Notes under the pieces: generated by a model | Seen by the model: the letters and a program-made list of their open reading frames with translations, nothing else | The model's database searches: none | Told to the model about the DNA's origin: nothing | Source: Acidobacteriota bacterium | GTDB taxonomy: Bacteria > Acidobacteriota > Thermoanaerobaculia > Gp7-AA8 | Length of the DNA: 64,000 nt | Reading direction: 5' to 3' | Assembly (NCBI GenBank): GCA_016184115.1 | Contig: JACPDH010000050.1 | Coordinates: 1,701-65,700, forward strand | Position numbers and translations under genes: made by a program | Part shown: piece after piece, positions 5,569 to 31,517 of the stretch | Layout of the letters: each line of letters begins with the position of its first letter | How positions within the stretch are numbered: position 1 is the stretch's first letter

Positions 5569-6651
5569 CTAGTAGTAGAGAACGGGGATCGTGAAGTCGA
5601 TCGAGTCGATTCCGTCGGAAACCCGGATGACGAGCTTGCCGGTCGTGCCATTGAGCGCCGCGCTCGGCCACCAGGTGATGAGGCCTGCCGAGTCGAGGAA
5701 GCGAACGCTTCCGTCGCTCTCGGCGATCGTGAAGGTCACGTTCGCCTTCTCGGGGTCCGCGGCGAGAATCCTGAAGTCGTTCGGGAAGCGCCCCGTGGCG
5801 ATCTTCAGCGTTTCGTCGAGCACGCCGTCTCCGTTCGCGTCGAGGTAGTCGAGCACGCCGTCACGGTTGGTGTCGATGCCGAGCACCGAAGGAAGCAGGT
5901 TCTCGCGCGTCTTGCCGGACGGAACGTAGGTCGGATCGCCGGTCTGGTTGTTCACGACGCTGCCGTAGATCCAGACCTGGCCGCTGCGAACGAGGGCGTG
6001 AATGACATCGTTGTCCTGCGCGTTGTCGCCGAAGAGTGCGGAGACGCCGCCGTTATACTGCGTGTGAGCTCCCGCCTTATGGCTCTTCAGTACGCTCTTC
6101 GCCATCGTGCCGTCACGACGGATCAGGCGCCACTCGATCGTCGCGTCCTGAGCGACGAACAGACCGAAGTTGAAGCGATTCGCAGCTGCGTTTGCGGGCC
6201 CGTTCAGGATGCCGGTGTCGCCGAGCAGCAACGACTGGGCGGACGTGAGCGCAGGAATGTCCTGGCCGAATTCGCCGGTCGGTGAGAGGTTGAAGGTGCG
6301 GCTCGTGATCGCGAGCTTGCCGCGGAACTCGTCGTCGGTGTCGATGACGATCGCGCCGGTCGACTGCGTCTGTGCGAAGTCGTTCTTCACCGTGTCGTGG
6401 AGCGACTTCGTCGAGCGCGCCGGCATCGGCAGGTCGATCGATTTCAACGCGCCTGTCCCGTCGTGATACGTGAGCTTGAGCAGCAGGACGTTCTGCCCCG
6501 CGTTGTGAATCGTCACCTCAGACTGCCACTGGCTATTGTTGGCACCTGGGCCGGTTCCTGCGGCCGGAATGAGAAAGTCGATGCTGTCGGCCGAGGCAAA
6601 GCCGGCCGTGAGGGCGATGGATGCGGCGATGAGGCTCTTCTTGAAGTTCAT
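5569..6651 (-). CDS. secreted hypothetical protein with EF-hand/thrombospondin-like Ca-binding loops
   Basis: N-terminal signal peptide MNFKKSLIAASIALTAGFASA and tandem DTNRDGVLD / DANGDGVLD loops. No recognisable catalytic motif. Confidence 0.6.
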   Translation of the reverse strand: MNFKKSLIAASIALTAGFASADSIDFLIPAAGTGPGANNSQWQSEVTIHNAGQNVLLLKLTYHDGTGALKSIDLPMPARSTKSLHDTVKNDFAQTQSTGAIVIDTDDEFRGKLAITSRTFNLSPTGEFGQDIPALTSAQSLLLGDTGILNGPANAAANRFNFGLFVAQDATIEWRLIRRDGTMAKSVLKSHKAGAHTQYNGGVSALFGDNAQDNDVIHALVRSGQVWIYGSVVNNQTGDPTYVPSGKTRENLLPSVLGIDTNRDGVLDYLDANGDGVLDETLKIATGRFPNDFRILAADPEKANVTFTIAESDGSVRFLDSAGLITWWPSAALNGTTGKLVIRVSDGIDSIDFTIPVLYY

Positions 6652-6946
6652 GGTTCTTCTCCTGGTCTGATCGTTGTTTGTGTCGCGGGGCTCGATCCGC
6701 CGTCCCGGCCGGTGGCCGGCGTCTCGTCATGCTTCGTTGCGTTGTTTCCCGCGCCATTCGCCCTTTGATACGAGTCGAAGAAATAGGGCGTCTATACGAT
6801 TTATGCTTTTCAGGCATATGAAATACTGCGAATAAATGGGCACACATATGCTTGCTGACAATGATGAGCAATTCCGAGGGCTTCGAGGCGGGAGGCGCGT
6901 ACTGCGCCGTTGTCAGCGATTGATACGACAGTGCGCGGACGAGCGT

Positions 6947-10313: not shown

Positions 10314-11153
10314 TTGAGTAAGATTGACGGGAAGGCGACACGAGTGGACGGCGAGAGACGAACGGGCGGAATCCAGGCGATCCGCGACATGAACCGCGAG
10401 GAGCTTTCCGCTCATCTCGCGGGGAACCTCGCAGAGCTGGGAGAAGACGAGGCTGTGGCGATCCTTGCGAACCGTTTCTGTCCGCTCGCTGTCTGCGTGG
10501 CGATTGCGTCGAGCTCGCGCCTCGCGTCGTATTACGATGTGAAGCTGAAGCTCGTGCTCTGCCGTGCGACGCCGCAGCATCTCGCGCTGAAGTTCGCGCG
10601 CCACCTCTACTGGGCCGATCTTCTTCGATACGCGACCGACGTCCAGATTGCACCGCCGATACGCGCCGCGCTCGACGCGCAACTGCTGAACGCGCTTCCG
10701 AAGCTGACGCTCGGCGAAAAGATATCGACCGCGAAGAGCTGTAGCCGCGATGTCGGCAAGGCGCTCGCCGGCGATCCTGACCTGCGCGTGTTCTCGGGAC
10801 TCCTCAACAACGCGCGGCTGCGCGAGGACGACCTCGTCGGTTTCCTTCAGTCGGATCGAGCCGGTGCCGAGCATCTGAAGCTCGTCGCCGGACACGCCAA
10901 ATGGGGTTTCCGCTATGCGATTCGCTGCGCGCTCGCGAGCAGTTCGCTCACGCCACGCGCGCTCGCCGCCTCGCAGCTCCGCTTTCTTCGTCGGGAGGAC
11001 CTCGACGCACTTTTCCGACACCCCGCGACTTCGGTGTACATCCGCCGATGCATCGAGCGCCTCGTGGGGAATGAGGGGCGTGAAGACGAGAGCTCCGATG
11101 CGGACGAGCCGGCCTCTGGACGAATTGGCTACAATGGCGGGTCGAATGGATGA
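10314..11153 (+). CDS. hypothetical protein (helical-repeat-like), weak paralogue of 11958-13037
   Basis: High GC3 in this frame, and the antisense ORF is Arg-rich noise. TTG start at 10314 in the track; ATG at 10389 (MNREEL) is an alternative. Confidence 0.5.
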   Translation: MSKIDGKATRVDGERRTGGIQAIRDMNREELSAHLAGNLAELGEDEAVAILANRFCPLAVCVAIASSSRLASYYDVKLKLVLCRATPQHLALKFARHLYWADLLRYATDVQIAPPIRAALDAQLLNALPKLTLGEKISTAKSCSRDVGKALAGDPDLRVFSGLLNNARLREDDLVGFLQSDRAGAEHLKLVAGHAKWGFRYAIRCALASSSLTPRALAASQLRFLRREDLDALFRHPATSVYIRRCIERLVGNEGREDESSDADEPASGRIGYNGGSNG

Positions 11154-11961
11154 GCCCGTCAATATCGATGCGCCCCAGCTTGGAGACTCTCTTGGAGCCG
11201 AGTTGCGGAAGCAGCGCGAGATTCGCCACGTCACGCTGAAAGAGATCGCCGACGCAACGAAGATCAGTAAACGCTATCTCGAGGCGCTGGAGCAGGATGA
11301 CTACTCAGGACTTCCCGCCCCGGTGTTCACGCGCGGGTTCGTGCGCGAGTACGCCCGCTACCTCGGCCTGAACGCCGAAGAGATGGCCGCGCGCTACTCC
11401 CAGCTCGTCGGCGCACAACCGGAGACATCTTCGACTCCCGTGCTGCCCCAGACGGAGAAGAAAGCGGAGGGACTTCCCTTCGTCAGGATCGACCGGAACA
11501 TCGTCGGTTTCGCCGCGCTGCTCGTCGTGTTTGGAGCGGTCATGTGGTGGCTCGGAGGGCGCGCAGACCAGCGAAGGCGGGCGGCGACGCCACAGGTGAC
11601 GGCGACCGCGGTTGCGCCTGCGGTGGCGCCGGTTGTCGTGACCGAACCAGTCGTCAGCGCGACAGCACCAGCGGAGTCGTCCGACAGGCTCGAGCTCGAC
11701 GTCAAGGTGATCGAAGACACTTGGGTGATCCTCCAGGTCGATGGCCAGCCCGCGTTGAACCAGGTGCTGCGAGCTGGAGAGACGAGAAAGCTCGAGGCGG
11801 AGAACGAGATTCGTTTCGAGGTCGTCGGAAACGCGGGAGGTCTCGAGCTGACGCTCAATGGTCACCGGGTGCCCGCGATGGGACCGCGCGGCAAAGTCGT
11901 GCGCGGGTTTGGACTGGATTGGGAAGCGCTGAAGCGACTCGAAGGCGGTACGACTCCATGA
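11134..11961 (+). CDS. RodZ-like HTH membrane protein (XRE HTH + TM + DUF4115-like C-terminus)
   Basis: HTH segment LRKQREIRHVTLKEIADATKISKRYLEALE, one TM helix, and a C-terminal LELDVKVIEDTWVILQVDG...LELTLNG. Start at 11134 or 11146; the upstream part of the track ORF was rejected. Confidence 0.7.
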   Translation: MAGRMDEPVNIDAPQLGDSLGAELRKQREIRHVTLKEIADATKISKRYLEALEQDDYSGLPAPVFTRGFVREYARYLGLNAEEMAARYSQLVGAQPETSSTPVLPQTEKKAEGLPFVRIDRNIVGFAALLVVFGAVMWWLGGRADQRRRAATPQVTATAVAPAVAPVVVTEPVVSATAPAESSDRLELDVKVIEDTWVILQVDGQPALNQVLRAGETRKLEAENEIRFEVVGNAGGLELTLNGHRVPAMGPRGKVVRGFGLDWEALKRLEGGTTP

Positions 11962-13037
11962 ACGAAGCTCCCGAACTGAATGCGCGAATGCTGATCGACC
12001 GGATGGAGCGCGGCGAGCTGCCGCGCGACTTTACGATGTTCGCGGCGCAGGGAATGCTGCCTCTTCCGCAGGATGACCTGATCGCCGTGCTTGCCCACCT
12101 TTCGACGAATTCCGACACCGAGGTCGCGGCGCTCTCGACGAAATCACTCCGCGAGATTCCGCCGCGTACCGTGGCAGCGTTTTGCGGCTCGGAGCTCGCC
12201 GACGAAGCGAGCCTCGACGCGATCGCGACGAAGAGTGGCGATCCCGCGATCCTCGAGGCGGTCGTTCGCAGCCGCGGGGTGTCCGACGCAACGATCGAAC
12301 GGCTCGCACGTGCCGTGCAGCCGGGAATTCAGGAGATCATTATCGTCAACCAGGAGCGGATCATCCGCAGGCCTGGAATCCTCGACGCGTTGCTCGAGAA
12401 TCCCGCGATTACGCCCGACGTGAGGCGACGAGTCGGTGAGGCGCGCGAGGAGTTCTTCGAGAAAAAAGCGCGCCGTGCTCTCTCCGCAGAGGCGGTTGCG
12501 GCGCTCGAGATCGAGGAGAGCATCGATATCGGCCCCGTTGCGGATCTTCTCGACGAAGCGGAAAGCGAGCCGCAGCCCGAAAACACGCTTTCGCCTCTCG
12601 AAGGTGACGCGGGCGACAGCGACAAGCTCTCGGTCTGGAGCATGATCGCCGAGATGACTGTCGGCGAGCGGGTGCAAGCCGCATACAAGGGTGGGAAAAC
12701 GGTTCGAGGGATCCTCGTGCGCGATCGGAACAAGCTCGTCTGTACCGCAGTGCTCAAGAGCCCGCGAATCACCGAATCGGAGATCGAAGCGTTTGCCGCG
12801 ATGCGAAATCTCGACGAGGCGGTGCTGCGGTTGATCGGTACGAAGCGCGAATTTCTGAGTAAGTACGTGACCGTCCACAACCTCGTGAAAAATCCGAAGA
12901 CGCCCGCCGGGATTGCTCTGAACCTCACCGGTCGACTAACCTCTAAGGATCTCAAGCAGCTGAGTACGAGCAAGGAAGTTGCCGAGGTCATTCGGGTGCA
13001 CGCGAGAAAGCTGCTTCAGGCGAAGGAAAGACACTAG
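11958..13037 (+). CDS. hypothetical helical-repeat protein
   Basis: ATGA overlap with the preceding stop. 359 aa with repeated alpha-helical units. The C-terminal region resembles the protein at 10314-11153. Confidence 0.6.
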   Translation: MNEAPELNARMLIDRMERGELPRDFTMFAAQGMLPLPQDDLIAVLAHLSTNSDTEVAALSTKSLREIPPRTVAAFCGSELADEASLDAIATKSGDPAILEAVVRSRGVSDATIERLARAVQPGIQEIIIVNQERIIRRPGILDALLENPAITPDVRRRVGEAREEFFEKKARRALSAEAVAALEIEESIDIGPVADLLDEAESEPQPENTLSPLEGDAGDSDKLSVWSMIAEMTVGERVQAAYKGGKTVRGILVRDRNKLVCTAVLKSPRITESEIEAFAAMRNLDEAVLRLIGTKREFLSKYVTVHNLVKNPKTPAGIALNLTGRLTSKDLKQLSTSKEVAEVIRVHARKLLQAKERH

Positions 13038-13043
13038 GCCGCA

Positions 13044-13664
13044 ATGCGAGTCAACTACTACGAAGTCCTTGGAGTCGAGAGAACTGCGACCGAGGACGAG
13101 ATCCGCGACCATTTCCGAAAGCTTGCGCGCGAGCACCATCCCGATCGATACCGAGGAACAGACAAGGCGGAAGCCGAGCGCAAGTTCCAGGTGCTGACCG
13201 AGGCGATGAACGTGCTCACGAATCCGCAGCGACGGAAGGCTCACGATTCGGAGCTTTCCGGAGGTGCGGGCGCGCGCGCGATGAGCGATCCGAAGGAGCT
13301 CGCGAAGGTCTACTTGTCGAACGGAGTGAAGGCGTTCAAGTCAGGCGACGTTCCGGCAGCGATCGAAGCGTTCGATATGGCCGTCAAGCACAATCCCGAC
13401 GACCCGAGAGCGCACCACTATCTCGCGCTCGCTGCGGCGAAAGTTCCCTCGATGCTCCGGCAGGCCGTGCAGGCGGTTGAAACCGCGGTACAAAAAGAAC
13501 CGTACAACCCGCTGTTCCTCAAAGATGCGGGGACACTCTGTCGTAGGGTAGGACTATTCTCAAAAGCTGAGCGATACTTTGAAGAAGCCTTAAAATGGGA
13601 TCAGGGGAACGCGGAGATCGAGACTGCTCTCGCCGAGATACGTCAGGCGAGAGCGAAGAAGTAA
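13044..13664 (+). CDS. J-domain protein with TPR C-terminus
   Basis: YYEVLGV...HHPDRY (HPD motif) followed by TPR-like helices. Confidence 0.8.
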   Translation: MRVNYYEVLGVERTATEDEIRDHFRKLAREHHPDRYRGTDKAEAERKFQVLTEAMNVLTNPQRRKAHDSELSGGAGARAMSDPKELAKVYLSNGVKAFKSGDVPAAIEAFDMAVKHNPDDPRAHHYLALAAAKVPSMLRQAVQAVETAVQKEPYNPLFLKDAGTLCRRVGLFSKAERYFEEALKWDQGNAEIETALAEIRQARAKK

Positions 13665-13697: not shown

Positions 13698-14465
13698 ATG
13701 GAAGTTAAGGCGTGCGGTCTCAGCCATGTCGGCAGGCAGCGCCAGCACAACGAGGATTCGTTCCGCGTTGACGAGGCGACGCGTCTGTTCCTCGTGGCAG
13801 ACGGGATGGGTGGACATGCGGCGGGAGAGATCGCGTCACGGATCGCCGCGGAGTCAGTCGCGGAGTTCGTGACCAACACCGAGCAAGACGACGGCACCTG
13901 GCCGTATGCGTATGACGAGACTCTGACTCGGGCGACGAACCGTCTGATGGCAGCACTCAAGCTCGCGAACACGCGCGTGCTCGAGGCGATGCGCAAGGAC
14001 ACGAGGCTGCGCGGAATGGGCACCACGGTCGTTGCATCGCTCGTCGACGGGAACTCGATCTCGGTGGCTCACGTGGGCGACTCGCGTGCATACCTGGTCA
14101 GAAACGGCGCGATCGAGAGGATCACGGACGACCACTCGTGGGTCTTCGAGCAAGTCCAGGCGGGAATGCTCAGCGCCGACGAGGCAGAGCGCCATCCTCT
14201 CCGAAATGTGATCACACGCGCGCTTGGCGGCGCGCTCACAGTCGTTCCCGACGCGTCGGAGATCGATCTGCGCGACGGCGACATCTTCGTACTCTGTTCC
14301 GACGGGCTCACCGGCATGCTCCCCGAGCCGGAGATCCTCCGAATTGTGAGCGAGAATGCGGGAAACCTCGAGGCGGCGTGTCAGATCCTGATCGACTGCG
14401 CCAATGAGCGGGGCGGCTACGACAACATCACCGCGGTACTCATCAAAGCGACCGAAACCCAATGA
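13698..14465 (+). CDS. PP2C-family Ser/Thr protein phosphatase
   Basis: Motifs NEDSF, VADGMGGHAAGE, GTTV, LCSDGL and DNIT. Confidence 0.85.
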   Translation: MEVKACGLSHVGRQRQHNEDSFRVDEATRLFLVADGMGGHAAGEIASRIAAESVAEFVTNTEQDDGTWPYAYDETLTRATNRLMAALKLANTRVLEAMRKDTRLRGMGTTVVASLVDGNSISVAHVGDSRAYLVRNGAIERITDDHSWVFEQVQAGMLSADEAERHPLRNVITRALGGALTVVPDASEIDLRDGDIFVLCSDGLTGMLPEPEILRIVSENAGNLEAACQILIDCANERGGYDNITAVLIKATETQ

Positions 14466-14689
14466 ACGTCATCATTCACTACTGCGGCGTCTGAAACTAC
14501 CTTCCCCGGGCCTCCAGTCTGGCGGCCGAGATCAAGGCACAACTCGGACACGAGTCGAAACTCGTCCGCGGAAGCGGCGGTATCTTCGACGTCTTCGCCG
14601 ACGATGTTCGCATTTACTCGAAGCACGAGACGGGGCAATTCCCCGACGAGAGCGAGATCATCGCTGCGCTTCGGGCGATTGCGCAGTGA
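14462..14689 (+). CDS. Rdx/SelW-like selenoprotein (in-frame UGA = Sec at codon 11)
   Basis: Translation MNVIIHYCGV-U-NYLPRASSLAAEIKAQLGHESKLVRGSGGIFDVFADDVRIYSKHETGQFPDESEIIAALRAIAQ*. The TGA at 14492-14494 sits at the CxxU redox position of the Rdx fold. The frame stays open and family-like for 64 more codons. ATGA overlap with the PP2C stop. Not in the ORF track. Confidence 0.7.
14509..14527 (+). promoter_or_regulatory. candidate bacterial SECIS hairpin
   Basis: GGCC-UCCA-GUC-UGGC-GGCC begins 14 nt after the UGA (first stem base 15 nt downstream). The GC stem has one U.C mismatch, and the apical loop is GUC (14517-14519). Folded by eye only. Confidence 0.35.
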
Positions 14690-14753: not shown

Positions 14754-15041
14754 ATGAAGATCGGCATCGACGAAGTCCGGCGTGTCGCCGCGCTCGCCTG
14801 CCTCGAATTCGAGGCGGGAGGCGAGGCGCAGATGGCTGAGGAGATGTCGCGAATCCTCGACTACGTCGATCAGATCCGCGATGTGCCCTCCGATCCTGAC
14901 GGTTCGTCGTTGCAGCAGCCGCCGGTTCGCCTTCGCGACGACGTCGCGGGCGAGTCTCTTCCTGCGGATGTAGTCGGCGCGTCGGCGCCCCGTTTCTCCC
15001 GGGGGCATTTCATCGTGCCGAAGGTGATCGGCGGTGAGTGA
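14754..15041 (+). CDS. gatC: Asp/Glu-tRNA amidotransferase subunit C
   Basis: 95 aa, MKIGIDEVRRVAALACLEF...ILDYVDQI...FIVPKV, immediately upstream of and overlapping gatA. Confidence 0.8.
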   Translation: MKIGIDEVRRVAALACLEFEAGGEAQMAEEMSRILDYVDQIRDVPSDPDGSSLQQPPVRLRDDVAGESLPADVVGASAPRFSRGHFIVPKVIGGE

Positions 15042-16482
15042 CACCGGACCTGTTGGCGCGAGAAGCGCCGCATCGATCAGTCGCGACGTTAGGCGAGGGA
15101 CACTCGCGCTTCGTACCCTCGGAGGCGACGTCATCGACGCAGTCGAGAAGCGCAACGACGAGCTTCGCGCGTTCGTCCACTTTGACGCCGGCGAAGCGCG
15201 CGCTGCATGCGACGCGTCGCATGCCGAAGGCGCGTTGGCTGGCGTCCCGATCGCGGTAAAAGACAACATCGCGACGCGCGGCACGCTGACGACGTGCGCG
15301 TCGCGGATTCTCTCGAGCTATCGCTCGCCGAACGACGCCACGGTGATCGAGCGCCTCGCGGCGGCGGGTGCGTGGGTCGCGGGGAAGACGAATCTCGACG
15401 AGTTCGCCATGGGATCGTCCACCGAGCACTCCGCGTTCGGCCCGACTTCGAATCCGTGGGACCCGACGCGCGTACCTGGCGGATCTTCCGGCGGTTCCGC
15501 GGCGGCGGTGGCGGCGGGGCTCGTCCCTGTGGCGCTCGGCTCCGACACGGGAGGCTCCGTGCGGCAGCCGGCGGCGTTTTGCGGGGTCACGGGACTGAAG
15601 CCGACCTGGGGGCGGGTCAGCCGGTCGGGGCTCGTTGCATTCGCGTCGTCGCTCGATCAGATCGGCATCTTCGCGCGGTCGGCGCGCGACTGCGCCCGCG
15701 TTCTCGGCGTGATTGCCGGACACGATCCACGAGACGCAACGACATCCATCGAGCCTGTTCCCGATTACGAATCCGCGCTCGAGGGAGGGATCGCAGGGCT
15801 CAGCGTCGGCATCGTCGAAGGAACGTGGGAAACACTCGACGACGAGATGCGCGTCTGCTTCGAGCGCTCGCTCACGATCCTCCGCGACCTCGGTGTGACC
15901 GTCACGCACGTGGCGCTCCCATCGCTCGGCCTTTCGATCGCGGTCTACTACATCATCGCGAATGCGGAAGCGAGCGCGAACCTCGCACGCTTCGACGGTA
16001 TTCGCTATGGCCGCCGCGCGGAGGGCGATCACACGCTGCGGGAGGGCTACGTCCGCTCACGCACGGAAGGGTTCGGCGACGAAGTGAAGCGGCGAATCAT
16101 GCTCGGGACGTTCGCGCTTTCGTCCGGCTACTACGACGAGTACTACGGGCGAGCGCAGCATGCACGCGCGATGATTACGGCCGAATTGCGCGCCGCATTC
16201 GGAGGGGTCGACCTGATCGCGATGCCGACGACGCCGACCGTGGCATTTCGCAAGGGCGAGAAACTCGCGGATCCTCTCTCGATGTATCTTTCCGATGTCT
16301 ATACGGCTCCCGCGAACCTAGCTGGCATCCCGGCAATCTCGGTGCCCGCGGCGCTGTCTTCGGAGGGACTTCCGATCGGTTTGCAGCTGCTCGGCCCGCA
16401 CTTCGCGGAGCCGCTGCTGCTGCGCGCTGCAGCCGCATTCGAGAGCTCTCTCGGCGTGCCGGTAATGGTTCCGCCGCGATGA
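15034..16482 (+). CDS. gatA: Asp/Glu-tRNA amidotransferase subunit A
   Basis: Amidase signature GGSSGGSAAAVAAG...GSDTGGSVRQPAAFCG. Confidence 0.95.
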   Translation: MSDTGPVGARSAASISRDVRRGTLALRTLGGDVIDAVEKRNDELRAFVHFDAGEARAACDASHAEGALAGVPIAVKDNIATRGTLTTCASRILSSYRSPNDATVIERLAAAGAWVAGKTNLDEFAMGSSTEHSAFGPTSNPWDPTRVPGGSSGGSAAAVAAGLVPVALGSDTGGSVRQPAAFCGVTGLKPTWGRVSRSGLVAFASSLDQIGIFARSARDCARVLGVIAGHDPRDATTSIEPVPDYESALEGGIAGLSVGIVEGTWETLDDEMRVCFERSLTILRDLGVTVTHVALPSLGLSIAVYYIIANAEASANLARFDGIRYGRRAEGDHTLREGYVRSRTEGFGDEVKRRIMLGTFALSSGYYDEYYGRAQHARAMITAELRAAFGGVDLIAMPTTPTVAFRKGEKLADPLSMYLSDVYTAPANLAGIPAISVPAALSSEGLPIGLQLLGPHFAEPLLLRAAAAFESSLGVPVMVPPR

Positions 16483-19400: not shown

Positions 19401-19478
19401 ACCAGCGGCCGACCGGCGGCCGGCGCGGAGGAGCCGCGTCCCCGCGGGTGCCGCGTTCGCGCGTGTGAGGAGAGACCG

Positions 19479-21434
19479 TTGAGCCTTCTGGGGCGTCTCG
19501 AAGATCTGTCCCTGACAGACATCGTTCAGATCGTTTTCCTCAGCAGGAGAACGGGCGTCCTCGAGATCATCGATTCTCGCGGCCGTCATTCGGTGATGTT
19601 CCAGCAAGGGCTCATCGTCAACGCGACCTCGCCGAAGACTCCCGACCTCGGCGCCTATCTGCTCGCATGCGGCATGGTCGATGCCGCCACGCTTCAGACG
19701 ATGAAGCAGGCCGAGGATTCAGGAATCCCCCTTGGCACCGCGGTCATCGACATGAATGTCGTGACGGTCGACGCCTTGTCGGACGCGATCCGGCTCCACG
19801 TCCTCGATGTGATGACGCCCCTTCTCTCGAGTCGCGATGGCGAATTCAACTTCATCCTGAGTGAATCGCTCACGGCACTCGACATCGAGTACGAGCCTCA
19901 GCGCATCTTCAAGGAAGGGGGAATCGCTCCGGCGAGAATCCTGGGAGAAGGCGAGAAGCTCAAGCCGTTGAAAGGTCTCGAAGACTCGATGCGCGCCGGC
20001 AAGGAGCTGCTTCGCGGCAACGTGGCGCAGACGACTCCACCAGGCCGTCTCGACCTCACGATGACCGAGGCGCCCCCCGCCCCCAGGTTTGCTCCGCTGC
20101 CGCCGTCGCCGATGGAGCCGCCCGACCTTTCGGAGAACGAGCTGGCCTCGATCGACGACGAGCCGTTCGACCTCGGGCTCGACGCCGCGCTCGAGGCGAT
20201 GGCGCCAACGCCAGGAACGCGTGGCGCGGAGCCGGCTGCTGCTCCTCTCGAGTCTCTCGTCGACTCGGTGCTCGAGCCTCCAGTCACTCCCGAGCCTCCC
20301 GTCGCGGAACTGCCGGCCGACGCAAGGCCTGTTGATTCCTTACCCGCGTCGCACCCTGACGTCGTAGCGCCGAGAGGACCAGCGACCGAGTTTCGAATCA
20401 CCGAGCAGCCACCGATCCAGGACATGGAGCGCGTCGTCGTTCTCTATCAGCAGGACCCGCTGCTCCGCGTCTCGGCACGACGAGCCTTTACCCGGCGCGG
20501 AATGACGACTGCACAGTACGGGGCGATGGAGGATGCCCGCGACGAAGTCGTCGAGCTCTTGAAGAAGAATCGATTCTTCGTGACGTTTCTCGATCTGGGC
20601 CCGCCATCGGGAGGTGGCACTGGTGAGGTGTTGCAGCTGCTCGCGCAGGTCAAAAGGCGGAATCACCGGCTCCCGGTCGTGGTGATCGACCGCGTGGCCG
20701 ATCTCCGCCGCCGTCACGATCTGCTCAAGAGCGGCGCCGACCTCTACCTCACGAAGCCTGCCGAAGGACATCTTCAGCCCGGCATGGTCGAGGAACAGCT
20801 CGCACTCTTCGCCGACGAGCTCGTGCTGTTCGCACAACGCGCCTTCGCCGAGCAGATCGAAGCAGGGGGAGGCGATCCCGATGCGTCGTACCAGATCTCG
20901 GCGCAGGAGAAGAGCGAGCGGAATTCGCAGGTCCTCATGCAGCTGATCAATGAGCTGAGCGACCCGAACGATATCAGCCAGGTGTCGCAGACGATCTTGC
21001 GGCTGACCGGACAGTACCTGGAGCGAGGAGCGATCTTCGCCTCCGCGATGGTGCAGTATGTCGGCATTGGAGGCTTTGGGCCGACAGGCGGTGCGGGCGA
21101 CATGAATGAGCGCGCCCGCGGCATCAAAGTGGGGCGCAACGAGCCCTCGGTGCTCAAAGACGTGACCGAATCGAGGAAGCCGCACCGCGGCAAGCTGCGG
21201 AAGACAGACGCGAACGTGAGGCTGATCGGCGGGCTCGGAACGCTCATGCCGAGCGAGGTGCTCGTTCTCCCGATCCTGAATAAGGACGAAGTGGTCGGTA
21301 TACTCTACGCGGACAACGCGTCGAACCGCGCGCCGATCGAAGAAGTCGCCGGGTTGGAGATTTTCCTTTCGCAGGCGGGGTTCGCGCTTCGGAACGCGAT
21401 GATCGCGAACCGGGGCCGTTACGGGCTCGAATGA
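19479..21434 (+). CDS. DUF4388-like N-domain / degenerate receiver / C-terminal GAF protein
   Basis: N-terminus LEDLSLTDIVQIVFLSRRTGVLEI (DUF4388-type) and a long Pro-rich linker. The receiver-like fold has QQD in place of the DD pair but retains FLDLG and LYLTKP. GAF-like C-terminus. TTG start with GAGGAG upstream. Confidence 0.65.
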   Translation: MSLLGRLEDLSLTDIVQIVFLSRRTGVLEIIDSRGRHSVMFQQGLIVNATSPKTPDLGAYLLACGMVDAATLQTMKQAEDSGIPLGTAVIDMNVVTVDALSDAIRLHVLDVMTPLLSSRDGEFNFILSESLTALDIEYEPQRIFKEGGIAPARILGEGEKLKPLKGLEDSMRAGKELLRGNVAQTTPPGRLDLTMTEAPPAPRFAPLPPSPMEPPDLSENELASIDDEPFDLGLDAALEAMAPTPGTRGAEPAAAPLESLVDSVLEPPVTPEPPVAELPADARPVDSLPASHPDVVAPRGPATEFRITEQPPIQDMERVVVLYQQDPLLRVSARRAFTRRGMTTAQYGAMEDARDEVVELLKKNRFFVTFLDLGPPSGGGTGEVLQLLAQVKRRNHRLPVVVIDRVADLRRRHDLLKSGADLYLTKPAEGHLQPGMVEEQLALFADELVLFAQRAFAEQIEAGGGDPDASYQISAQEKSERNSQVLMQLINELSDPNDISQVSQTILRLTGQYLERGAIFASAMVQYVGIGGFGPTGGAGDMNERARGIKVGRNEPSVLKDVTESRKPHRGKLRKTDANVRLIGGLGTLMPSEVLVLPILNKDEVVGILYADNASNRAPIEEVAGLEIFLSQAGFALRNAMIANRGRYGLE

Positions 21435-21444
21435 GGCGGACAGA

Positions 21445-21828
21445 ATGAAGATACTCGTTGTTGAGGATTCGCCCTCGATGCGCGCGTACGTGACGACGCT
21501 CGTGGAGAGCTTTCACGACGAGGAAGAGGTTGAGATCGTCGAGGCCTCGAGCGGCTTCGAGGCGCTCAAGGTTCTGCCTCACCACAAGCTCGACGCAATC
21601 CTCACCGACATCAACATGCCCGACATCAACGGGCTCGAGCTCGTCAGCTTCATCAAGAACCACCCGGGATACAAAGCGATCCCGATCCTCGTGATTTCCA
21701 CCGAGTCGAGTGAGGAAGACCGGAAGCGCGCGGAGGCGCTCGGCGCCGAAGAGTACCTCGTGAAGCCGTTCGCGCCGGAGGACCTGCTCGACAAACTGCG
21801 TCGGCTGCTCGGGAAACCGTCCGCATGA
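21445..21828 (+). CDS. cheY: CheY-like single-domain response regulator
   Basis: Canonical receiver residues: LVVEDS, ILTDINMPDINGLE, VISTE, YLVKP. Confidence 0.85.
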   Translation: MKILVVEDSPSMRAYVTTLVESFHDEEEVEIVEASSGFEALKVLPHHKLDAILTDINMPDINGLELVSFIKNHPGYKAIPILVISTESSEEDRKRAEALGAEEYLVKPFAPEDLLDKLRRLLGKPSA

Positions 21829-23852
21829 CGAAAGACGACGATCGCGTCAAAGAGGAGTTCACGTCCGAAGCCGAAGAGCTTCTCGACGCGCTGTCGAACG
21901 ACCTGGTCGAGTTCGAGTCGCAGGGACGGAACGTCCGGCCCGAGCTCGTCAACAAGATTTTCCGTGAGATCCACTCGCTGAAGGGTCTTGCCGGGATGCT
22001 CGGCTTCGTCCAGATCTCCGAGCTCTCACACAATCTCGAGGACATGCTCGACAAGCTCCGGATGGGGAAGGTCGAGATCTCGCGTGATCTTCTCGACCTC
22101 CTTTACGACGCGGTCGACAGTCTCAACCGCCTCGTCATCGCGATCCACGATCCCGCGATGGAGGCGCTCGTCGATGTGCCGAAGCTGACGAGCCGCATTC
22201 ATGCGCTCGTCTCGCAAAAGGCTCCCGAGCAGAAAGGCGATCCACTCGCCGGGCTCGAGATCGACGAACAGACGCGCAAGTCGCTGACCGAGTACGAGGA
22301 GCACCGACTCGTCGAGAACGTCAAGAGCGGTCGTGCGATCTATCTCGTCGAAGTCACATTCGACTTCAGCGATTTCGACGAGAAGCTTCGCGCGATTACG
22401 GCCGCGCTCAGCCCGTTAGGCGAGGTGATCTCGACGCTTCCCGCGATCGATTCGAGCGGCGGAAACGGAATCTCGTTCCGCCTCCTCTACGGCTCCGACG
22501 CCGACAAGGCCGCAGTGATCGACACCGCGGGGCGGGAGGCGAACGTCCGTTCACTCCGCACGGGAGCTTCCGCTGTCGCGCCGGCGGACGAAGCCGTCGT
22601 CGCCGAACCGGGCGCCGAAGAGGACTTCACACTTCGATCGATGTCGCGCACGGTTCGCGTCGACATCGGCAAACTCGATCACGTGATGAACATCGTCGGC
22701 GAGCTGATCATCGAGAAGAACCACCTCGAGGGCGTTACGCGCACGCTTCAGCTCCAGAACCAGAGGATGGTCTCGCACGAGCTCGTGAAGATCTCCCGCA
22801 ACTTCGACCGGAAACTCAACGAGCTGCAGAAGTCGGTGATCGAGACGCGCATGGTGCCGATCGGGCAGATCTACTCGAAACTCGGCCGCACGGTCCGCAA
22901 GGTAGCGCGCGAGCTCCGGAAGGAGATCGATCTCGTTCTTCGGGGCGAGGATACCGAGCTCGACAAGATGATGGTCGAGCAGCTGACCGATCCGCTGATG
23001 CACATCATCCGCAACGCGATCGATCACGGGATCGAGCCACCCGAGCAGCGCGTCGCCGCGGGCAAGCCTGCGACTGCACGCGTCGTGCTCAACGCCTACC
23101 AGAAGGGGAACTCGGTCGTCATCGACGTGATCGACGATGGGCGTGGCATCGATCCCGAGAAGGTCAAGCAGGTTGCAGTCAAGCGTGGCCTCATGCAGCC
23201 GAAAGAGCAGATCGACCTGCCGCGCGCCTGCGAGCTTCTCTTCACTCCGGGCTTCTCGACGGCGGCGGAAGTGAGTGAGATCTCGGGACGCGGCGTCGGC
23301 CTCGATGTTGTTCGAAAGAACCTGCAGGAGCTCAAAGGCTCGATCGACATCATCTCCGACATCGGTAAGGGGTCGACGTTTCGGATCATGCTGCCGATCA
23401 CGCTCGCGATCATCCAGGCGCTCGTCGTGCGCGCCGGTGATGAGAACTTCGCGATTCCACTCACGTCGGTCGAGGAGTCACTCCGGATCCGCGGGCGCGA
23501 GATCACCACGGTCGAGAGACGCGAAGTCTTCAGCCTCCGGAACTTCGCGCTGCCGCTGCTGCGGCTCTCCGACGCGTTTCAGGTGCGCGACGGACGAGAC
23601 ACGAGCTCACCCGACACCAAGTGGTTCATCGTCGTCACGCGAGCCGGCGAGCGTATGGTCGGCATCCTCGTCGATGCACTCGTGCGGCAGCAGGAGATCG
23701 TCATCAAATCGATCGGTGACCGTCTCAAGGCGATTCCCGGGATTGCGGGGGCGACCGAGATCGGTGAGAACGAGATCATCCTCGTGGTCGACGTCGGTTC
23801 ACTGATTGACAACTACGGGCCGACCGCACGGATGGCTCGAAGCGGTCGCTAG
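21825..23852 (+). CDS. cheA: chemotaxis-type histidine kinase CheA
   Basis: HPt FREIHSLKGLAGMLGF, dimerisation region, HATPase boxes (HIIRNAIDHG, DDGRGID, GRGVGLDVV, GKGSTF) and a C-terminal CheW-like domain. ATGA overlap with cheY. Confidence 0.9.
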   Translation: MTKDDDRVKEEFTSEAEELLDALSNDLVEFESQGRNVRPELVNKIFREIHSLKGLAGMLGFVQISELSHNLEDMLDKLRMGKVEISRDLLDLLYDAVDSLNRLVIAIHDPAMEALVDVPKLTSRIHALVSQKAPEQKGDPLAGLEIDEQTRKSLTEYEEHRLVENVKSGRAIYLVEVTFDFSDFDEKLRAITAALSPLGEVISTLPAIDSSGGNGISFRLLYGSDADKAAVIDTAGREANVRSLRTGASAVAPADEAVVAEPGAEEDFTLRSMSRTVRVDIGKLDHVMNIVGELIIEKNHLEGVTRTLQLQNQRMVSHELVKISRNFDRKLNELQKSVIETRMVPIGQIYSKLGRTVRKVARELRKEIDLVLRGEDTELDKMMVEQLTDPLMHIIRNAIDHGIEPPEQRVAAGKPATARVVLNAYQKGNSVVIDVIDDGRGIDPEKVKQVAVKRGLMQPKEQIDLPRACELLFTPGFSTAAEVSEISGRGVGLDVVRKNLQELKGSIDIISDIGKGSTFRIMLPITLAIIQALVVRAGDENFAIPLTSVEESLRIRGREITTVERREVFSLRNFALPLLRLSDAFQVRDGRDTSSPDTKWFIVVTRAGERMVGILVDALVRQQEIVIKSIGDRLKAIPGIAGATEIGENEIILVVDVGSLIDNYGPTARMARSGR

Positions 23853-23855
23853 ACG

Positions 23856-24668
23856 ATGTTTCGCGAATTCTTCGGCTTCCGTCACAAGCCGTTCGGCAAG
23901 ACGCCGAACCCGGCGTTCCTTTACGAAAGCCCACAACATCGGGAGGCGCTCGCGCGGTTGGAGTACGCCGTCGAGGAGAAGGAGCTCGCTCTTCTCTGTG
24001 GCGACGTCGGTTCGGGCAAGACGACGCTCTCCCGCGCGCTGATCGACCGGATCGGCGAGGCGCGCCCCGTCATTCTCATCGTCAATCCGGCGCTCTCGCC
24101 CGCGCAACTGCTGCGCTCGATCGCTTCAGGGTTCGGCCTCACGCCGAAGCATCATCGCGCCGACCTGCTCGACCAGCTCTACACGAAGCTCTTCGAGCTC
24201 TACGAGAGCGGGCGCGAGCCGGTGCTGATCATCGATGAAGCGCAATTGATTCCGACGAAAGCGACCTTCGAGGAGATTCGCCTGCTGACGAACTTCCAGC
24301 TCGACGACGACAATCTCCTCTCCATCGTCCTAATCGGACAGCCCGAGCTCAAAGAGCGTCTCGGCCACCGCGCCTATCGGGCGCTGCGGCAGCGCATCGG
24401 AATCCAGTACTCGCTCTCTCCTCTATCCGAGGAAGAGACGGTGCGCTACGTCCAGCATCGCCTTCAGGTGGCGGGCGGCGGCACAAATCCCTTTACCATA
24501 GATGCAATGTCGGCGATCCACCGCTACAGTGAGGGGATTCCCCGCGTCATCAACACGCTTGCGACAACCGCGTTACTCGACGCGTTTGGCGATGAGTCGG
24601 TTACGATCGATGGCGCGAGGATCGCGGCCGCCGCGCGCGAGCACGGCCTCGACGGGAGACAGCGCTGA
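23856..24668 (+). CDS. ExeA/GspA/MshM-like AAA+ (AAA_22-type) ATPase
   Basis: FGF...PF N-terminus, Walker A GDVGSGKTT, Walker B LIIDEAQ, QPEL and GIPRVIN motifs typical of ExeA-like ATPases. Starts 3 nt after the cheA stop, and its stop overlaps the cheW start (TGATG). Confidence 0.75.
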   Translation: MFREFFGFRHKPFGKTPNPAFLYESPQHREALARLEYAVEEKELALLCGDVGSGKTTLSRALIDRIGEARPVILIVNPALSPAQLLRSIASGFGLTPKHHRADLLDQLYTKLFELYESGREPVLIIDEAQLIPTKATFEEIRLLTNFQLDDDNLLSIVLIGQPELKERLGHRAYRALRQRIGIQYSLSPLSEEETVRYVQHRLQVAGGGTNPFTIDAMSAIHRYSEGIPRVINTLATTALLDAFGDESVTIDGARIAAAAREHGLDGRQR

Positions 24669-25537
24669 TGGTCGATCTCGTCAAGATTCGGAAGAAGGCG
24701 AAGAACGCGAAAGAGCCCGCGCCCGAGGTGGCCGAGGCTCCGCCTGTCGCAGTGGGCGCACAGCCTGCCGCGACGCCCGTGACTCCTCCCGCCGTCGCGC
24801 CGCCGTCACCCGACGAATCCGAGCCGGCGGCGACGATTGACGTTGAGCCTGCACCGCTCTCTCCCCCACAGCCGGCGCCCGCGTCGGCGAAACCGAAGAA
24901 GCAGCCGAAGGCCGCGCCGAAGGAGCAGGCACCCGTGCCGCCTCCGCGCGAGGAGTCCCCTCCGACACCGAGTCGGGCAGAAGCTCCTCTTCTCGAGCCC
25001 GAGGACGCAGGCGAAGACCGGCTCGTGAGGTTCAAGCGGCTCGCAGGGAAGCGGCGCAGTTGGGGAGCGGCTTCGAAGGCAGCGGGGCAGGAGGAGACGG
25101 CAGCAGCAGAAGGCGACCTCGAGCTGTTGCGCTTCCGCGTGGCGGGGGAAGACTACGCGGTCGACATCGACAAGATTGTCGAGATCGTGCCACCACGCGC
25201 CACGACACGAGTTCCGAACGCCGACGATGCGATCGTGGGCATCATGTCACTTCGCGGTACGATCGTCACGGTGATCGACTTGCGGCGAAAACTGGGCCAC
25301 CCGAGGGTCGATCTCGACACGCTGAAGGATGCAAGGATGATCGTCGTCGAGCGTGCCGGCGAGACCGCAGGCTTCCTCGTCGACAGGGTGTCTCGCGTCG
25401 TAAAGCTCGATCGCGGTCAGATCGAGAGCCACCCGGTCGTCAGCTCGCAGGAACAGAGCGAGTACGTCTCGGGCGTCTTCCAGTCGAATGACGGTTTGGT
25501 CATCCTCCTCGACATTGAGAGAATACTGGCAGGGTAG
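24668..25537 (+). CDS. cheW: CheW coupling protein with Pro/Ala-rich N-terminal extension
   Basis: The C-terminal ~150 aa is CheW-like (LLRFRVAGEDYAVDIDKIVEIV...SLRGTIVTVIDLRR...GLVILLDI). The N-terminal ~130 aa is low-complexity P/A/E-rich. Confidence 0.8.
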   Translation: MVDLVKIRKKAKNAKEPAPEVAEAPPVAVGAQPAATPVTPPAVAPPSPDESEPAATIDVEPAPLSPPQPAPASAKPKKQPKAAPKEQAPVPPPREESPPTPSRAEAPLLEPEDAGEDRLVRFKRLAGKRRSWGAASKAAGQEETAAAEGDLELLRFRVAGEDYAVDIDKIVEIVPPRATTRVPNADDAIVGIMSLRGTIVTVIDLRRKLGHPRVDLDTLKDARMIVVERAGETAGFLVDRVSRVVKLDRGQIESHPVVSSQEQSEYVSGVFQSNDGLVILLDIERILAG

Positions 25538-25550
25538 GCAACGCACCTTC

Positions 25551-26387
25551 ATGGAAATCACCTGCAAGCAGTGCTCGGCAACGTATCGAGTCAACGTGCA
25601 GCTGCCGCTGACCGGTCCGGTCAGGGTCGCATGTCCGTCGTGCGGGAAGCAGAAGACGTTGCGTCCGGTCGCCGCGGAGCCCGCCGGAGCGGGAAGTGCC
25701 GCGCCTGCGCCACGACCGTCCGGAAGGCGACGGAACGCGGTCATCGCGGACGAGCCACGACCGTTCCGCGAGTTCCTCGTTGCCGAGCTCAGCAAGCTCG
25801 GCTTCGAGCCTCACGTCTTCGAGACGGGCGACAAGGCACTCGAGCGCGTGCGCGAGACGGGCGCGGAGCTCGTGATCCTCAATGTCTACCTGCGTGGCAA
25901 GCTCGGCGTGGAGATCTCCGAAGAGATCAAGGCCGACCCTGATCTGAAGCACTCGAAGGTCGTGCTCATCGGCGCACTCTTCCGCGCAAACCGTTTCCGT
26001 GCGAATCCGACGAATCTCTACGGCGCCGACGAGTACATCGAGGAACAGATCCCGGCGGTCGAGTTTCACCGGATCGTTCGTAAGCTCTTCCCATCGGTGA
26101 GCGACCACGAGGAACCGGAACCTCGCGAGTACGACGAGGCGAAGCGCCTCGCGCGCCTGATCCTCTCCGACATCATCATTTACAACGCGGAGAAAGTAGA
26201 GCGCGGCATCCGCGAAGGTACCTTCTTCGAGCTTCTCCGCGCGGAGATCGAAGACGGTCGCAACTACTACGAGAGCCGTGTGCCTTTCAAGGTCCGCCAG
26301 CGCACCGAGTTCTTCCACGAGACGCTGCAGCATTTCGTCGAAATGAAGCGCGAGGAAGTACTCGGGCCGCGACGAGCGGAAGCGTGA
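25551..26387 (+). CDS. zinc-ribbon + degenerate (pseudo-)receiver protein
   Basis: MEITCKQCSATYRV...VACPSCGKQ zinc ribbon. The receiver-like fold has N at the phospho-Asp position (LVILNVYL) and no conserved KP. Conserved-looking helical C-terminus. Confidence 0.6.
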   Translation: MEITCKQCSATYRVNVQLPLTGPVRVACPSCGKQKTLRPVAAEPAGAGSAAPAPRPSGRRRNAVIADEPRPFREFLVAELSKLGFEPHVFETGDKALERVRETGAELVILNVYLRGKLGVEISEEIKADPDLKHSKVVLIGALFRANRFRANPTNLYGADEYIEEQIPAVEFHRIVRKLFPSVSDHEEPEPREYDEAKRLARLILSDIIIYNAEKVERGIREGTFFELLRAEIEDGRNYYESRVPFKVRQRTEFFHETLQHFVEMKREEVLGPRRAEA

Positions 26388-26391
26388 CGCG

Positions 26392-28617
26392 ATGACGATC
26401 GATCCCCAACTGCTCGAGCAGGCCCGGTCGGCGGATTCCGACGCGCGCCACCGTGTCGCCGCGACCGTCGCGAAGAGCGACGACGGCGAGCATCTCGCAC
26501 TCGCATTCGAGCTTCTGGGCGACCGTGACTGGCGCGTTCGGAAGGCGATCGTCGAGGGGTTCCTGCAGCACACATCGGATGACATCATCCGCGGCTTGAT
26601 CCTCGCGCTTCACGATGACGCGAATGCGGGTAAGCGCAACTCCGCGACCGAGGCGCTCATTCGGATCGGTCAGCGCAGCCTCGAGATCATCCTGCGTGAG
26701 TTTCACCAGGAGCGCGATCCCGACGTCCGGCTCTCACTCGTCAATCTGCTCGGCGACCTCCGGAGCGACGACGGCCTTACATTGCTTCTCCACGTTCTCG
26801 ATGGCGAGGATGACATCAACGTACTCTCCTCGGCGGTCGCGTCGGTCGGCAAGTATCGCGACTCGCGCACGATCTCGAAGCTTCTCCAACTTCTCGGTCG
26901 CGACGATCTCTGGCTGAAGTTTCACGTCGTCGAGGCACTCGGACACATTGGCGACCGTGCGGCGTTGCCGTCGATCCTGCCTCTATACGCGGAGCCGTCG
27001 TTGCGCAAACCGGTGCTCGAGGCGATCGGACGCATCGCCGACGTCGGAACGGTCAACTTCCTGCTCCGGATCCTCAACGAGGAGTCGAAGCTCAACCTGA
27101 CCGCGCTTCGTGCGCTGATTCGCATCGCCCGCTCCGACAAGCCTCGCGTAATCGAGGCCGCGGAGAGGCAGATCATTCAGAGGATGTTCCGCGAGGCGTT
27201 CCCGAAGACCAAGATCGACGCGCTCGTCGACCACCTCGTGTCGACGCCAAAGCGCGACGTGAAAAACTTCATTCTGACGTTCCTTGGCTGGTCGGGCGAT
27301 GTGAGAGCGACGCACCCGCTTCTCGACCACCTCCAGCAGCCTGAGAGCGCCGACCTGGCCGCACAGGCGTTGATCGACCTCGGCGCCGTCGCGTCGCAGC
27401 AGGTGCTCGAAGCGTTGCAGAACAGCGACGACGACGAGATCACAGCGCTACTGATTCGCATCGTGAACATGGCGGGAGGCCCGGAGGCGATTCCGACGAT
27501 CCTCCAGTTCCTCGACCACGACAACTCCATGATCCGGAGGCTCGCGATCGAAGCTCTCGGCGAGATCCTCGATCCCGGCACGGTCGATTACCTCCTCGTC
27601 AAGCTCGACGATCCCGACGTCGCCTGCCAGCAGGCGGCGGTGAACTCCACTTCGGCGCTCGTCGCCGCGTTCCCGGAGATCAAAGCGGACACGCTCGCGA
27701 AGATCCGGCGCCTGCTCGGCTCGAATAACGTCCCGACGAAGCTCAACTCCCTGTCGATCTACGTCAACATCCAGGGCGAGGGCTATCACGACGAGCTTCT
27801 GCTCGCGTCGAAGGACGAGGACGCCGTGATCCGGCAGAAGGCGATCTCGCTGATGGGGAAGTTCAGCGACGAGCGTTTTGCCGACACGATGGTGCTATCC
27901 CTTGCCGACGAGTCGACCACAGTTCGTCTCGCGGCGATCGAGGCCATCCAGACGCTGAAGCCGGAGACGGGCCTGGCACCGCTGATCTCGTCGCTCGAGG
28001 ACACAGACATCTGGCTCCGCACGGCGGCGGCGCAGGCGCTCGGCGAGTACCGCGACGCGGCGATCGTCGAGCCCCTTGTGAGGCACCTCGAGACCGACGT
28101 GACCCCGGTGAAGATTGCCGTGATCGACGCCCTCGGCAAGTCGGAGAGCGAAGGCGCGCGCGACGCATTGCTGCAGCGGCTCGACGAGTCGGACATCGAG
28201 ATCCGTAAGGCGGCGATTCTGGCGCTTTCGCGGATTCCGGGCGAGACCATCTTCGAACGGCTCTCGGGCTTTCTGCTCGATCCTGATTGGCGGCTCCGCG
28301 CCGCCGCGGCGCTTGCGCTCGGGCAACGCGGGGACGAGCGGGCGCTCGGCGCGCTCCACCATGCGATGGAGACGGATCCCGACACCTTCGTGCGGCAATC
28401 GGTCGTCGCCGGCCTGGAGAAAATGGCGAGCCGCTCGTCGTTCCCGTATCTACTCGCGGCGATCGAGGATCAGGCTGTCCTCGACGAGATCTCCCACATG
28501 TTCGTGAAGCACAAGGAGAGCTACAGGGACCTTCTCGAAGATGCGTGGCGTCACGCCGGGAGCCGGCACGAGGTGATCATCGCGGCGATCCTTCAGTCGA
28601 TGCGAGCGACGGTGTGA
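26392..28617 (+). CDS. 741-aa HEAT-repeat (PBS-lyase-type) protein
   Basis: About 20 repeats of the D-x-x-V/I-R-x-x-A-x-x-A-L-G pattern (e.g. DWRLRAAAALALGQRGD, DIWLRTAAAQALGEY, DIEIRKAAILALSRI). Confidence 0.8.
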   Translation: MTIDPQLLEQARSADSDARHRVAATVAKSDDGEHLALAFELLGDRDWRVRKAIVEGFLQHTSDDIIRGLILALHDDANAGKRNSATEALIRIGQRSLEIILREFHQERDPDVRLSLVNLLGDLRSDDGLTLLLHVLDGEDDINVLSSAVASVGKYRDSRTISKLLQLLGRDDLWLKFHVVEALGHIGDRAALPSILPLYAEPSLRKPVLEAIGRIADVGTVNFLLRILNEESKLNLTALRALIRIARSDKPRVIEAAERQIIQRMFREAFPKTKIDALVDHLVSTPKRDVKNFILTFLGWSGDVRATHPLLDHLQQPESADLAAQALIDLGAVASQQVLEALQNSDDDEITALLIRIVNMAGGPEAIPTILQFLDHDNSMIRRLAIEALGEILDPGTVDYLLVKLDDPDVACQQAAVNSTSALVAAFPEIKADTLAKIRRLLGSNNVPTKLNSLSIYVNIQGEGYHDELLLASKDEDAVIRQKAISLMGKFSDERFADTMVLSLADESTTVRLAAIEAIQTLKPETGLAPLISSLEDTDIWLRTAAAQALGEYRDAAIVEPLVRHLETDVTPVKIAVIDALGKSESEGARDALLQRLDESDIEIRKAAILALSRIPGETIFERLSGFLLDPDWRLRAAAALALGQRGDERALGALHHAMETDPDTFVRQSVVAGLEKMASRSSFPYLLAAIEDQAVLDEISHMFVKHKESYRDLLEDAWRHAGSRHEVIIAAILQSMRATV

Positions 28618-28678
28618 GGCGAGCGCCGAGCCCTGGGGCCGACGCGCGGCCTCAGATCCCGGCACTTGGACGACCTGG

Positions 28679-29533: not shown

Positions 29534-29555
29534 CGGGAGGAAGGGCCCGCGACTC

Positions 29556-30590: not shown

Positions 30591-30650
30591 AGGCGCAGGG
30601 ATGGTTCGGGCGGTTCCAGTTGTGCTAGATTCTGCAAAAGGGCCGGACCG

Positions 30651-31469: not shown

Positions 31470-31517
31470 GATGCTGGAGCGCGAGGGCGCTCACGGAACC
31501 CGGGGTCAGAGGACCAG

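Follow-up and report, generated by a model that had tools for sequence, protein, structure and literature searches.

A short reading frame in the genome of an Acidobacteriota bacterium (class Thermoanaerobaculia; contig JACPDH010000050.1) raises the question of whether a UGA codon near its start ends translation or is read as selenocysteine (Sec). The frame lies at 14462-14689 in the 64,000-nucleotide stretch analysed here, called the window throughout, and opens on an ATG (14462-14464) that overlaps the TGA stop codon (14463-14465) of a PP2C-type phosphatase gene. It reads MNVIIHYCGV as far as a TGA at 14492-14494, then stays open for 64 codons (NYLPRASSLAAEIK...RAIAQ) up to a terminal TGA at 14687-14689. 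The gene very probably encodes a Sec-containing SelW-like protein whose UGA is recoded via a hairpin at 14509-14527. Both the family and the mechanism are already known, and the gene adds to a known family of bacterial selenoproteins.

Reading frame, family and fold

Past the in-frame UGA, the protein continues as NYLPRASS...AQ and contains GGIFDV...YSKHETGQFP, an instance of the Rdx-type pattern G-G-x-F-[ED]-V...SK...G.FP. A preliminary description of this DNA had given the ATG and its ATGA overlap with the phosphatase stop, the ten codons before and 64 codons after the UGA, the Rdx-type pattern and a GC hairpin with a GUC apical loop at 14509-14527, and the sequence bears out each of these at its exact position. 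The same description held that the gene had been missed by the open reading frame (ORF) track. This stands for the mechanical ORF list, which has no entry in the frame because the first piece is too short and no in-frame ATG, GTG or TTG follows the TGA, but a protein database does hold a truncated 56-residue call from the same contig (P0001), starting at Leu20 and thus necessarily on a CTG codon. Dozens of homologues in public records are called at 55-64 residues, and NCBI records of metagenome-assembled genomes (MAGs) list an 'Rdx family protein' of 60-62 residues. Some orthologues are already labelled 'predicted Rdx family selenoprotein' by JGI.

For profile scoring, the UGA was read as Cys. 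The resulting 75-residue product scores 65.6 bits against Pfam PF10262 (Rdx; cut-off 22.6 bits), with residues 2-71 covering profile positions 1-73 of 74. Without the ten upstream codons, the score drops by 21 bits, to 44.5 bits. NCBIfam TIGR02174 'CXXU_selWTH' is likewise passed, at 49.9 bits for a cut-off of 34.2. The best-scoring NCBIfam model is the equivalog NF041051 SelTWH_Campy, which aligns over almost its full length; the score of 79.5 bits falls short of the curated cut-off of 88 bits and places the window protein outside that equivalog.

Among proteins of known structure, the best sequence matches are the Cys-form bacterial SelW-related entries 2fa8, 3dex, 2oka, 2p0g, 2obk and 2ojl, together with human MIEN1. 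Alignment of YCGV-U-NYLPRA with YCTQCNWLLRA or YCTQCRWLPRA (2fa8, 3dex, 2oka) is gapless and therefore puts the UGA opposite the second CxxC cysteine, the catalytic column in which it had been expected.

The fold was taken from the AlphaFold model of P0002, a full-length homologue sharing 68% identity with the window protein. The model, with a predicted local distance difference test score (pLDDT) of 92.5, consists of strand 1 (residues 3-8), helix 1 (14-28), three strands, a short helix and helix 2. Cys8 closes strand 1 and residue 11 sits in the loop just ahead of helix 1, a placement that in the model corresponds to the classic redox geometry of the thioredoxin fold. Foldseek places the model closest to bacterial SelW-related crystal structures (template modelling (TM) score 0.88-0.92, and 0.89-0.92 for 2fa8 and 2obk; 30-38% identity over aligned residues), with thioredoxins further down the list; the TM score is 0.65 to mouse SelW (2npb) and 0.76 to MIEN1/C17orf37 (2ljk). 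Profiles and model together place the protein in the Rdx/SelW/SelT/SelH family, with a thioredoxin-like fold.

Conservation of the UGA codon and of the hairpin behind it

A tblastn screen of GTDB, with one genome per species, yielded 141 confirmed relatives, of which the best 80 were kept for counts of genome loci. Nearly all of these come from MAGs of Thermoanaerobaculia or other Acidobacteriota, and together with the window they make up 81 sequences. The match begins at residue 1 in 80/80 loci, and codon 11 is TGA in 80/80. An independent DNA-pattern scan of JGI metagenomes gives the same picture, with TGA at the Sec codon in 121/121 of the matches listed (at least 121). A split frame with TGA at codon 11, kept in all these sequences, is far beyond chance.

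The codons on either side of this position behave as parts of one gene. Homologues starting after the TGA, which the preliminary description had named as evidence that would count against selenocysteine, are not what is found: a start codon stands at the aligned position, ten codons upstream of the TGA, in 81/81 sequences (ATG 59, GTG 18, TTG 4). Cys8 and the TGA are invariant in all 81. Before the UGA, conservation is 100% at I5, Y7 and C8 and 95% at G9 and V10, with synonymous variation; conservation as protein in combination with synonymous variability indicates that the ten upstream codons are translated in this frame. The terminal stop varies freely (TAG 33, TGA 32, TAA 16), and codon 11 should show the same drift if it were an ordinary stop. 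Reassignment of TGA in the genetic code was ruled out, since TGA is the commonest ordinary stop in the window and ends 32 of 51 genes.

Three database entries depart from this pattern at the protein level. In two ENA metagenome contigs from different clades, L082 and L084, the Sec codon TGA is replaced by AGA (Arg) (L082:1105-1107 and L084:905-907; proteins P0002 and P0006), with the hairpin intact. No AGA, CGA or GGA variant at this codon was found in the JGI metagenome collection. Sequencing error is one possible source of the AGA codons; others are dead alleles, which would come to light only because a variant with a sense codon is called at full length, and natural recoding of a sense codon to Sec, which is documented for ten sense codons (PMC10778597). 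The third entry, P0014 (L083:301-303), has Trp at the Sec position in the database protein and TGA in the DNA, because its source contig was translated with a TGA=Trp table; a 'full-length' database homologue can conceal a Sec codon in this way. Candidates for other selenoprotein genes in the window, sought as TGA-split frames with coding signal on both sides and as same-frame abutting ORFs, all proved to be ordinary adjacent genes.

The hairpin downstream of the UGA has the sequence GGCC-U-CCA-[GUC]-UGG-C-GGCC, in which a lower stem (GGCC/GGCC) and an upper stem (CCA/UGG) are separated by a U.C mismatch (14513/14523) and capped by the apical loop GUC (14517-14519). Across the 81 aligned sequences, RNAalifold returns this same hairpin and no other conserved structure in the 60 nucleotides (nt) after the UGA. 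Counted over the alignment, 97.6% of cells are paired, a figure that drops to 16-45% when the 3' partner is slid by 1-3 columns, and the covariation score was reached by 0/500 shuffles. The closing pair (14509/14527) joins two wobble positions, those of Arg16 and Ala22. Among 134 distinct sequences from all sources it is A-U in 53, G-C in 49 and C-G in 10. Pairing is intact in 85%, where independence would give 56% (chi-square p = 2e-31, uncorrected for phylogeny).

Codon usage within the hairpin points the same way. Codons 17-21 are almost exclusively GCC, TCC, AGT, YTG and GCG, with an entropy of 0-0.1 bit (0.66 for the loop Y), and 75-80 of 81 sequences share the GCC, TCC, AGT and GCG codons. 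At Gly, Pro, Ser and Arg codons in the rest of the gene that are four- or six-fold degenerate and conserved to the same degree, entropy is 1.2-2.1 bits. The near-zero synonymous entropy therefore indicates selection on the RNA on top of that on the protein. The AGT is a Ser codon with an A/T-ending third position, and the genes of the window are G+C-rich at third positions. Metagenome sequences, an independent set, agree with the conservation of the hairpin; the sequence GCCUCCAGUYUGGCGGC is nearly invariant across the class, and the window has a single copy of the apical motif CCAGTYTGG.

In position and shape, the hairpin fits published descriptions of the bacterial selenocysteine insertion sequence (SECIS). 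It begins 14 nt past the UGA and its loop starts 22 nt after it, within the published range of 16-37 nt between loop and UGA (PMC10778597). Bacterial SECIS elements are described as stem-loops with a small G-containing apical loop (PMC1088965), as is seen here.

Decoding would proceed as in other bacterial selenoprotein genes of this kind. Translation would begin at the ATG that overlaps the phosphatase stop codon. Once a ribosome reached the UGA, the hairpin, with its small GUC loop closed by A-U and an unpaired U beneath the 3-bp upper stem, would recruit SelB-GTP with Sec-tRNA(Sec), and selenocysteine would be inserted in place of termination. The product is expected to adopt a thioredoxin-like fold in which strand 1 ends at Cys8 and helix 1 follows shortly after Sec11; the two residues might cycle between the selenol/thiol and selenenylsulfide states. 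Such cycling would suit a small thiol-dependent oxidoreductase or antioxidant acting on a redox substrate.

Evidence against selenocysteine and rival explanations

Several observations weigh against the selenocysteine assignment. The weak point is the decoding machinery. In the 64 kb window, a stretch too short to decide the matter, ARAGORN found no tRNA genes of any kind, a six-frame scan of the window found no SelA, SelB or SelD motifs, and no selA, selB or selD Pfam domains were present in the window ORFs scanned (all but a few of 52 ORFs selected by G+C content at third codon positions, the rest being read by eye or annotated from the contig). The flanks of 204 related loci, about 1 Mb in all, likewise yielded no tRNA-Sec (ARAGORN) and no SelA, SelB or SelD motif. 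Acidobacteria are recorded, at phylum level, as having selenoproteins (PMC1794560), and the literature searched links no Thermoanaerobaculia with selenocysteine. The structural model was built on a homologue (P0002) that has Arg at the Sec position.

The hairpin has its own adverse results. Only one of its seven pairs covaries, and the other six are invariant and thus silent on pairing as such. An Rfam scan of 14440-14620 at E <= 10 gave chance matches and no SECIS family, a result with no bearing on whether the hairpin works as a SECIS element. Folding energy does not set the single, G+C-rich sequence apart from its shuffles (z = 0.03 for 75 nt, -0.53 for 27 nt). The SECIS element of Escherichia coli fdhF, a proven reference, does not reach significance either (z = -0.91); its sequence is present with 100% identity within fdhF in 5419/5426 complete E. 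coli genomes. Since a proven element also fails, single-sequence folding energy has no power as a test and was dropped as a criterion.

Three other explanations deserve to be set against recoding to selenocysteine. If the TGA were a true stop, the gene would be decayed or its protein would start after the TGA, as in the calls of 55-64 residues, and automated annotation does produce such truncated products (P0001, 56 residues; the NCBI MAG entries of 60-62 residues). Yet the lack of an in-frame ATG, GTG or TTG after the TGA forces P0001 onto its CTG start, and the truncated product would be without strand 1 and the active-site Cys and loses 21 bits in Pfam. A dead stretch would also look different from the upstream ten codons, whose start and TGA persist in 81/81 sequences with synonymous variation in between, and a true stop should drift between TAA, TAG and TGA as the terminal one does, which makes this explanation barely credible. 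Readthrough by a suppressor tRNA that inserts Ser, Cys or Trp at codon 11 has somewhat more in its favour and is still improbable. Possible agents are allo-tRNAs of the kind known from Acidobacteria or a tRNA(Cys) mimicking tRNA(Sec); a study of tRNA-Sec-like allo-tRNAs raises the possibility of nonsense suppressors in some Acidobacteria (PMC5389517), and Sec machinery was not found in the window or in the related flanks. General opal suppression would nevertheless be costly where TGA is so common a stop, suppression to Cys predicts TGY codons among more than 200 homologues, where none is seen, and SelW-like proteins are a documented Sec family (PMC1088965, PMC1794560). Suppression also leaves a synonymously frozen, covarying hairpin with a GU loop at SECIS distance without explanation.

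The remaining alternative accepts the selenoprotein gene and denies the hairpin its role: SelB would recognise something else, and conservation at 14509-14527 would stem from another RNA-binding factor or from mRNA stability. Direct support for pairing at a single pair, the missing Rfam match and the non-significant folding energy all favour it. However, RNAalifold predicts no conserved structure other than this hairpin within 60 nt of the UGA on its 3' side, the position and small G-containing loop of the hairpin match published bacterial SECIS elements, and it resembles the fdhF element; the extended lower stem CCUU/AAGG of the single-sequence fold was rejected because it is not conserved in the alignment. 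A hairpin that is conserved for some other purpose is accordingly very unlikely. Selenocysteine insertion at the UGA remains the preferred explanation. The preliminary description had proposed both the SECIS element and the recoding: the former now draws support from the RNAalifold consensus of 81 sequences, the synonymous freeze, the covarying closing pair and the loop 22 nt from the UGA, and the latter from conservation of the UGA, the alignment of U with Cys and the constrained hairpin.

Correcting the gene call restores an active site to a protein that public MAG records show as a fragment of 55-64 residues. The gene also makes selenocysteine use probable for Thermoanaerobaculia, a class of Acidobacteriota that is widespread in soil and sediment. 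Rfam has no match for the near-invariant hairpin, which, with its single clean covarying pair, could serve as the starting point of a covariance model. The understanding of selenocysteine decoding itself is unchanged by this gene.

Genomic neighbourhood and known systems

The selenoprotein gene stands in a conserved gene order (Table 1). By tblastn synteny, the PP2C gene lies immediately upstream in 74/80 related loci and the DnaJ-TPR gene upstream in 69/80, while gatC and gatA occur within 3 kb downstream in about 30 of 80. The ATGA overlap, which was read directly in the window only, suggests translational coupling of the PP2C and selenoprotein genes; in three related loci (L002, L004 and L031) the tblastn match to PP2C reaches the start of the selW-like gene. 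A promoter and terminator scan found no promoter-like or terminator-like site separating these genes in the window, which is weak evidence and consistent with a single transcript of the DnaJ-TPR, PP2C, selW-like and gatCA genes. The PP2C gene is a probable operon partner of the selW-like gene.

Table 1. Positions of the selenoprotein gene, its elements and its neighbours in the window
Feature	Position	Strand	Basis or remark
DnaJ-domain and TPR protein gene	13044-13664	+	Pfam DnaJ and TPR; first of the conserved three-gene order
PP2C-type Ser/Thr phosphatase gene	13698-14465	+	Pfam PP2C; directly upstream of the selW-like gene
selW-like (Rdx family) selenoprotein gene, very probable	14462-14689	+	75 codons including Sec11; translation, Rdx profiles, 80 orthologous loci of the same architecture
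ATGA overlap of selenoprotein gene start and PP2C gene stop	14462-14465	+	read from the sequence
CxxU redox motif: Cys8 (TGC 14483-14485), Gly, Val, Sec11 (TGA 14492-14494)	14483-14494	+	alignment, model
Candidate bacterial SECIS hairpin	14509-14527	+	inside the ORF; RNAalifold, covariation, synonymous constraint
gatC	14754-15041	+	Pfam GatC; begins 64 nt downstream of the selenoprotein gene
gatA	15034-16482	+	downstream of gatC

Six loci are without the PP2C gene. The four of their flanks that were scanned hold MsrA and a sulfite-oxidase-type molybdoenzyme, MurB and DPP-IV, or an AhpC/TSA-like protein, and these differing neighbours indicate that the PP2C link is specific to the class. At one locus from Vicinamibacterales (L079:1518-4486), the selW-like gene is flanked by genes for MsrA and for a sulfite-oxidase-type molybdoenzyme, and these redox-repair surroundings differ from the PP2C neighbourhood found in the window.

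What SelW-like proteins do in bacteria has been described as unclear (PMC1088965), and the conserved PP2C linkage offers a testable hint on their role. The coupling suggested by the ATGA overlap, together with the conserved order of DnaJ-TPR, PP2C and selW-like genes, might mean that the selenoprotein is a dedicated redox partner of the upstream phosphatase and not a free-standing antioxidant; on gene order and overlap, this is an unlikely proposal. If true, the partnership would amount to a selenium-dependent redox switch on Ser/Thr phospho-signalling, undescribed for any bacterial SelW-like protein.

Elsewhere, the window holds several recognisable gene groups. Positions 19401-31907 contain a chemotaxis-like cluster that comprises, in this order, DUF4388/receiver, receiver, CheA, AAA_22 ATPase, CheW and zinc-ribbon receiver genes, followed by genes for a 757-residue HEAT-repeat protein, CheR, CheB, a GAF protein and a receiver; no methyl-accepting chemotaxis protein was seen among the genes of this cluster. 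A MoxR AAA ATPase, a DUF58 protein, an ORF without a Pfam match, two VWA-domain proteins and a BatD-like protein are encoded at 40469-47503, which resembles a Bat/aerotolerance-type operon. On the minus strand, at 49374-55831, a gene for a UvrD-type helicase with a PD-(D/E)XK nuclease domain (1170 residues) adjoins one for a 1076-residue PD-(D/E)XK nuclease protein, and the two look like an AddAB-type end-processing pair. Seven ORFs have a coding-like G+C pattern and no Pfam match at E <= 1e-5: 5572-6726 (minus strand), 10314-11150, 11958-13034, 38588-38944, 42507-43331, 59971-60387 (minus strand) and 62054-62869 (minus strand). The third of these, of 359 residues, has a RodZ-like gene on one side and the DnaJ-TPR gene on the other, and gene calls on the related contig L001 include it as well.

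SelW-like proteins with a CXXU motif are an established family of bacterial selenoproteins and were the most abundant one in Sargasso Sea data, with 48 genes (PMC1088965). A genome survey lists them among 25 selenoprotein families and reports few Cys-form homologues in Sec-using organisms (PMC1794560). The window gene shares with other bacterial SelW-like selenoproteins a length of about 75 residues, a CxxU motif right after strand 1, an in-frame UGA and a downstream hairpin within the ORF that would serve as SECIS element, and its clade shares the predominance of the Sec form over few Cys forms. In contrast to the others, this clade (Thermoanaerobaculia and other Acidobacteriota) is mostly recorded as a truncated 'Rdx family protein', and it has a near-invariant SECIS element and a clade-specific order of DnaJ-TPR, PP2C and selW-like genes.

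Cys-form bacterial Rdx proteins (2fa8 Atu0228, 2obk, 2oka, 2ojl, 2p0g, 3dex) have the same fold and the redox motif in the same place, but their motif is CxxC, they have about 103-108 residues against 75 in the window protein, and they need no recoding. Mammalian selenoprotein W (2npb) and MIEN1/C17orf37 (2ljk) are more distant and share the Rdx fold and the position of the CxxU or CxxC motif. Eukaryotic SelW relies on a SECIS element in the 3' untranslated region and on SBP2/eEFSec, not on an in-frame SelB hairpin (PMC10778597).

At the level of the RNA, the closest comparison is with the fdhF element of E. coli (...GG-U-UGCA-[GGUC]-UGCA-CC...). Both elements lie in the ORF soon after the UGA, and both have a small GU loop closed by A-U and an unpaired 5' U below a short upper stem. 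They differ in loop size, which is 3 nt (GUC) in the window and 4 nt (GGUC) in fdhF, and in the U, which faces a C as a 1x1 mismatch in the window and forms a bulge in fdhF. No extended lower helix is conserved in the window hairpin. With the U of UGA as 1, the loop GU stands at +26/+27 in the window and, by our own count, at +23/+24 in fdhF; the window element lies one codon further from its UGA.

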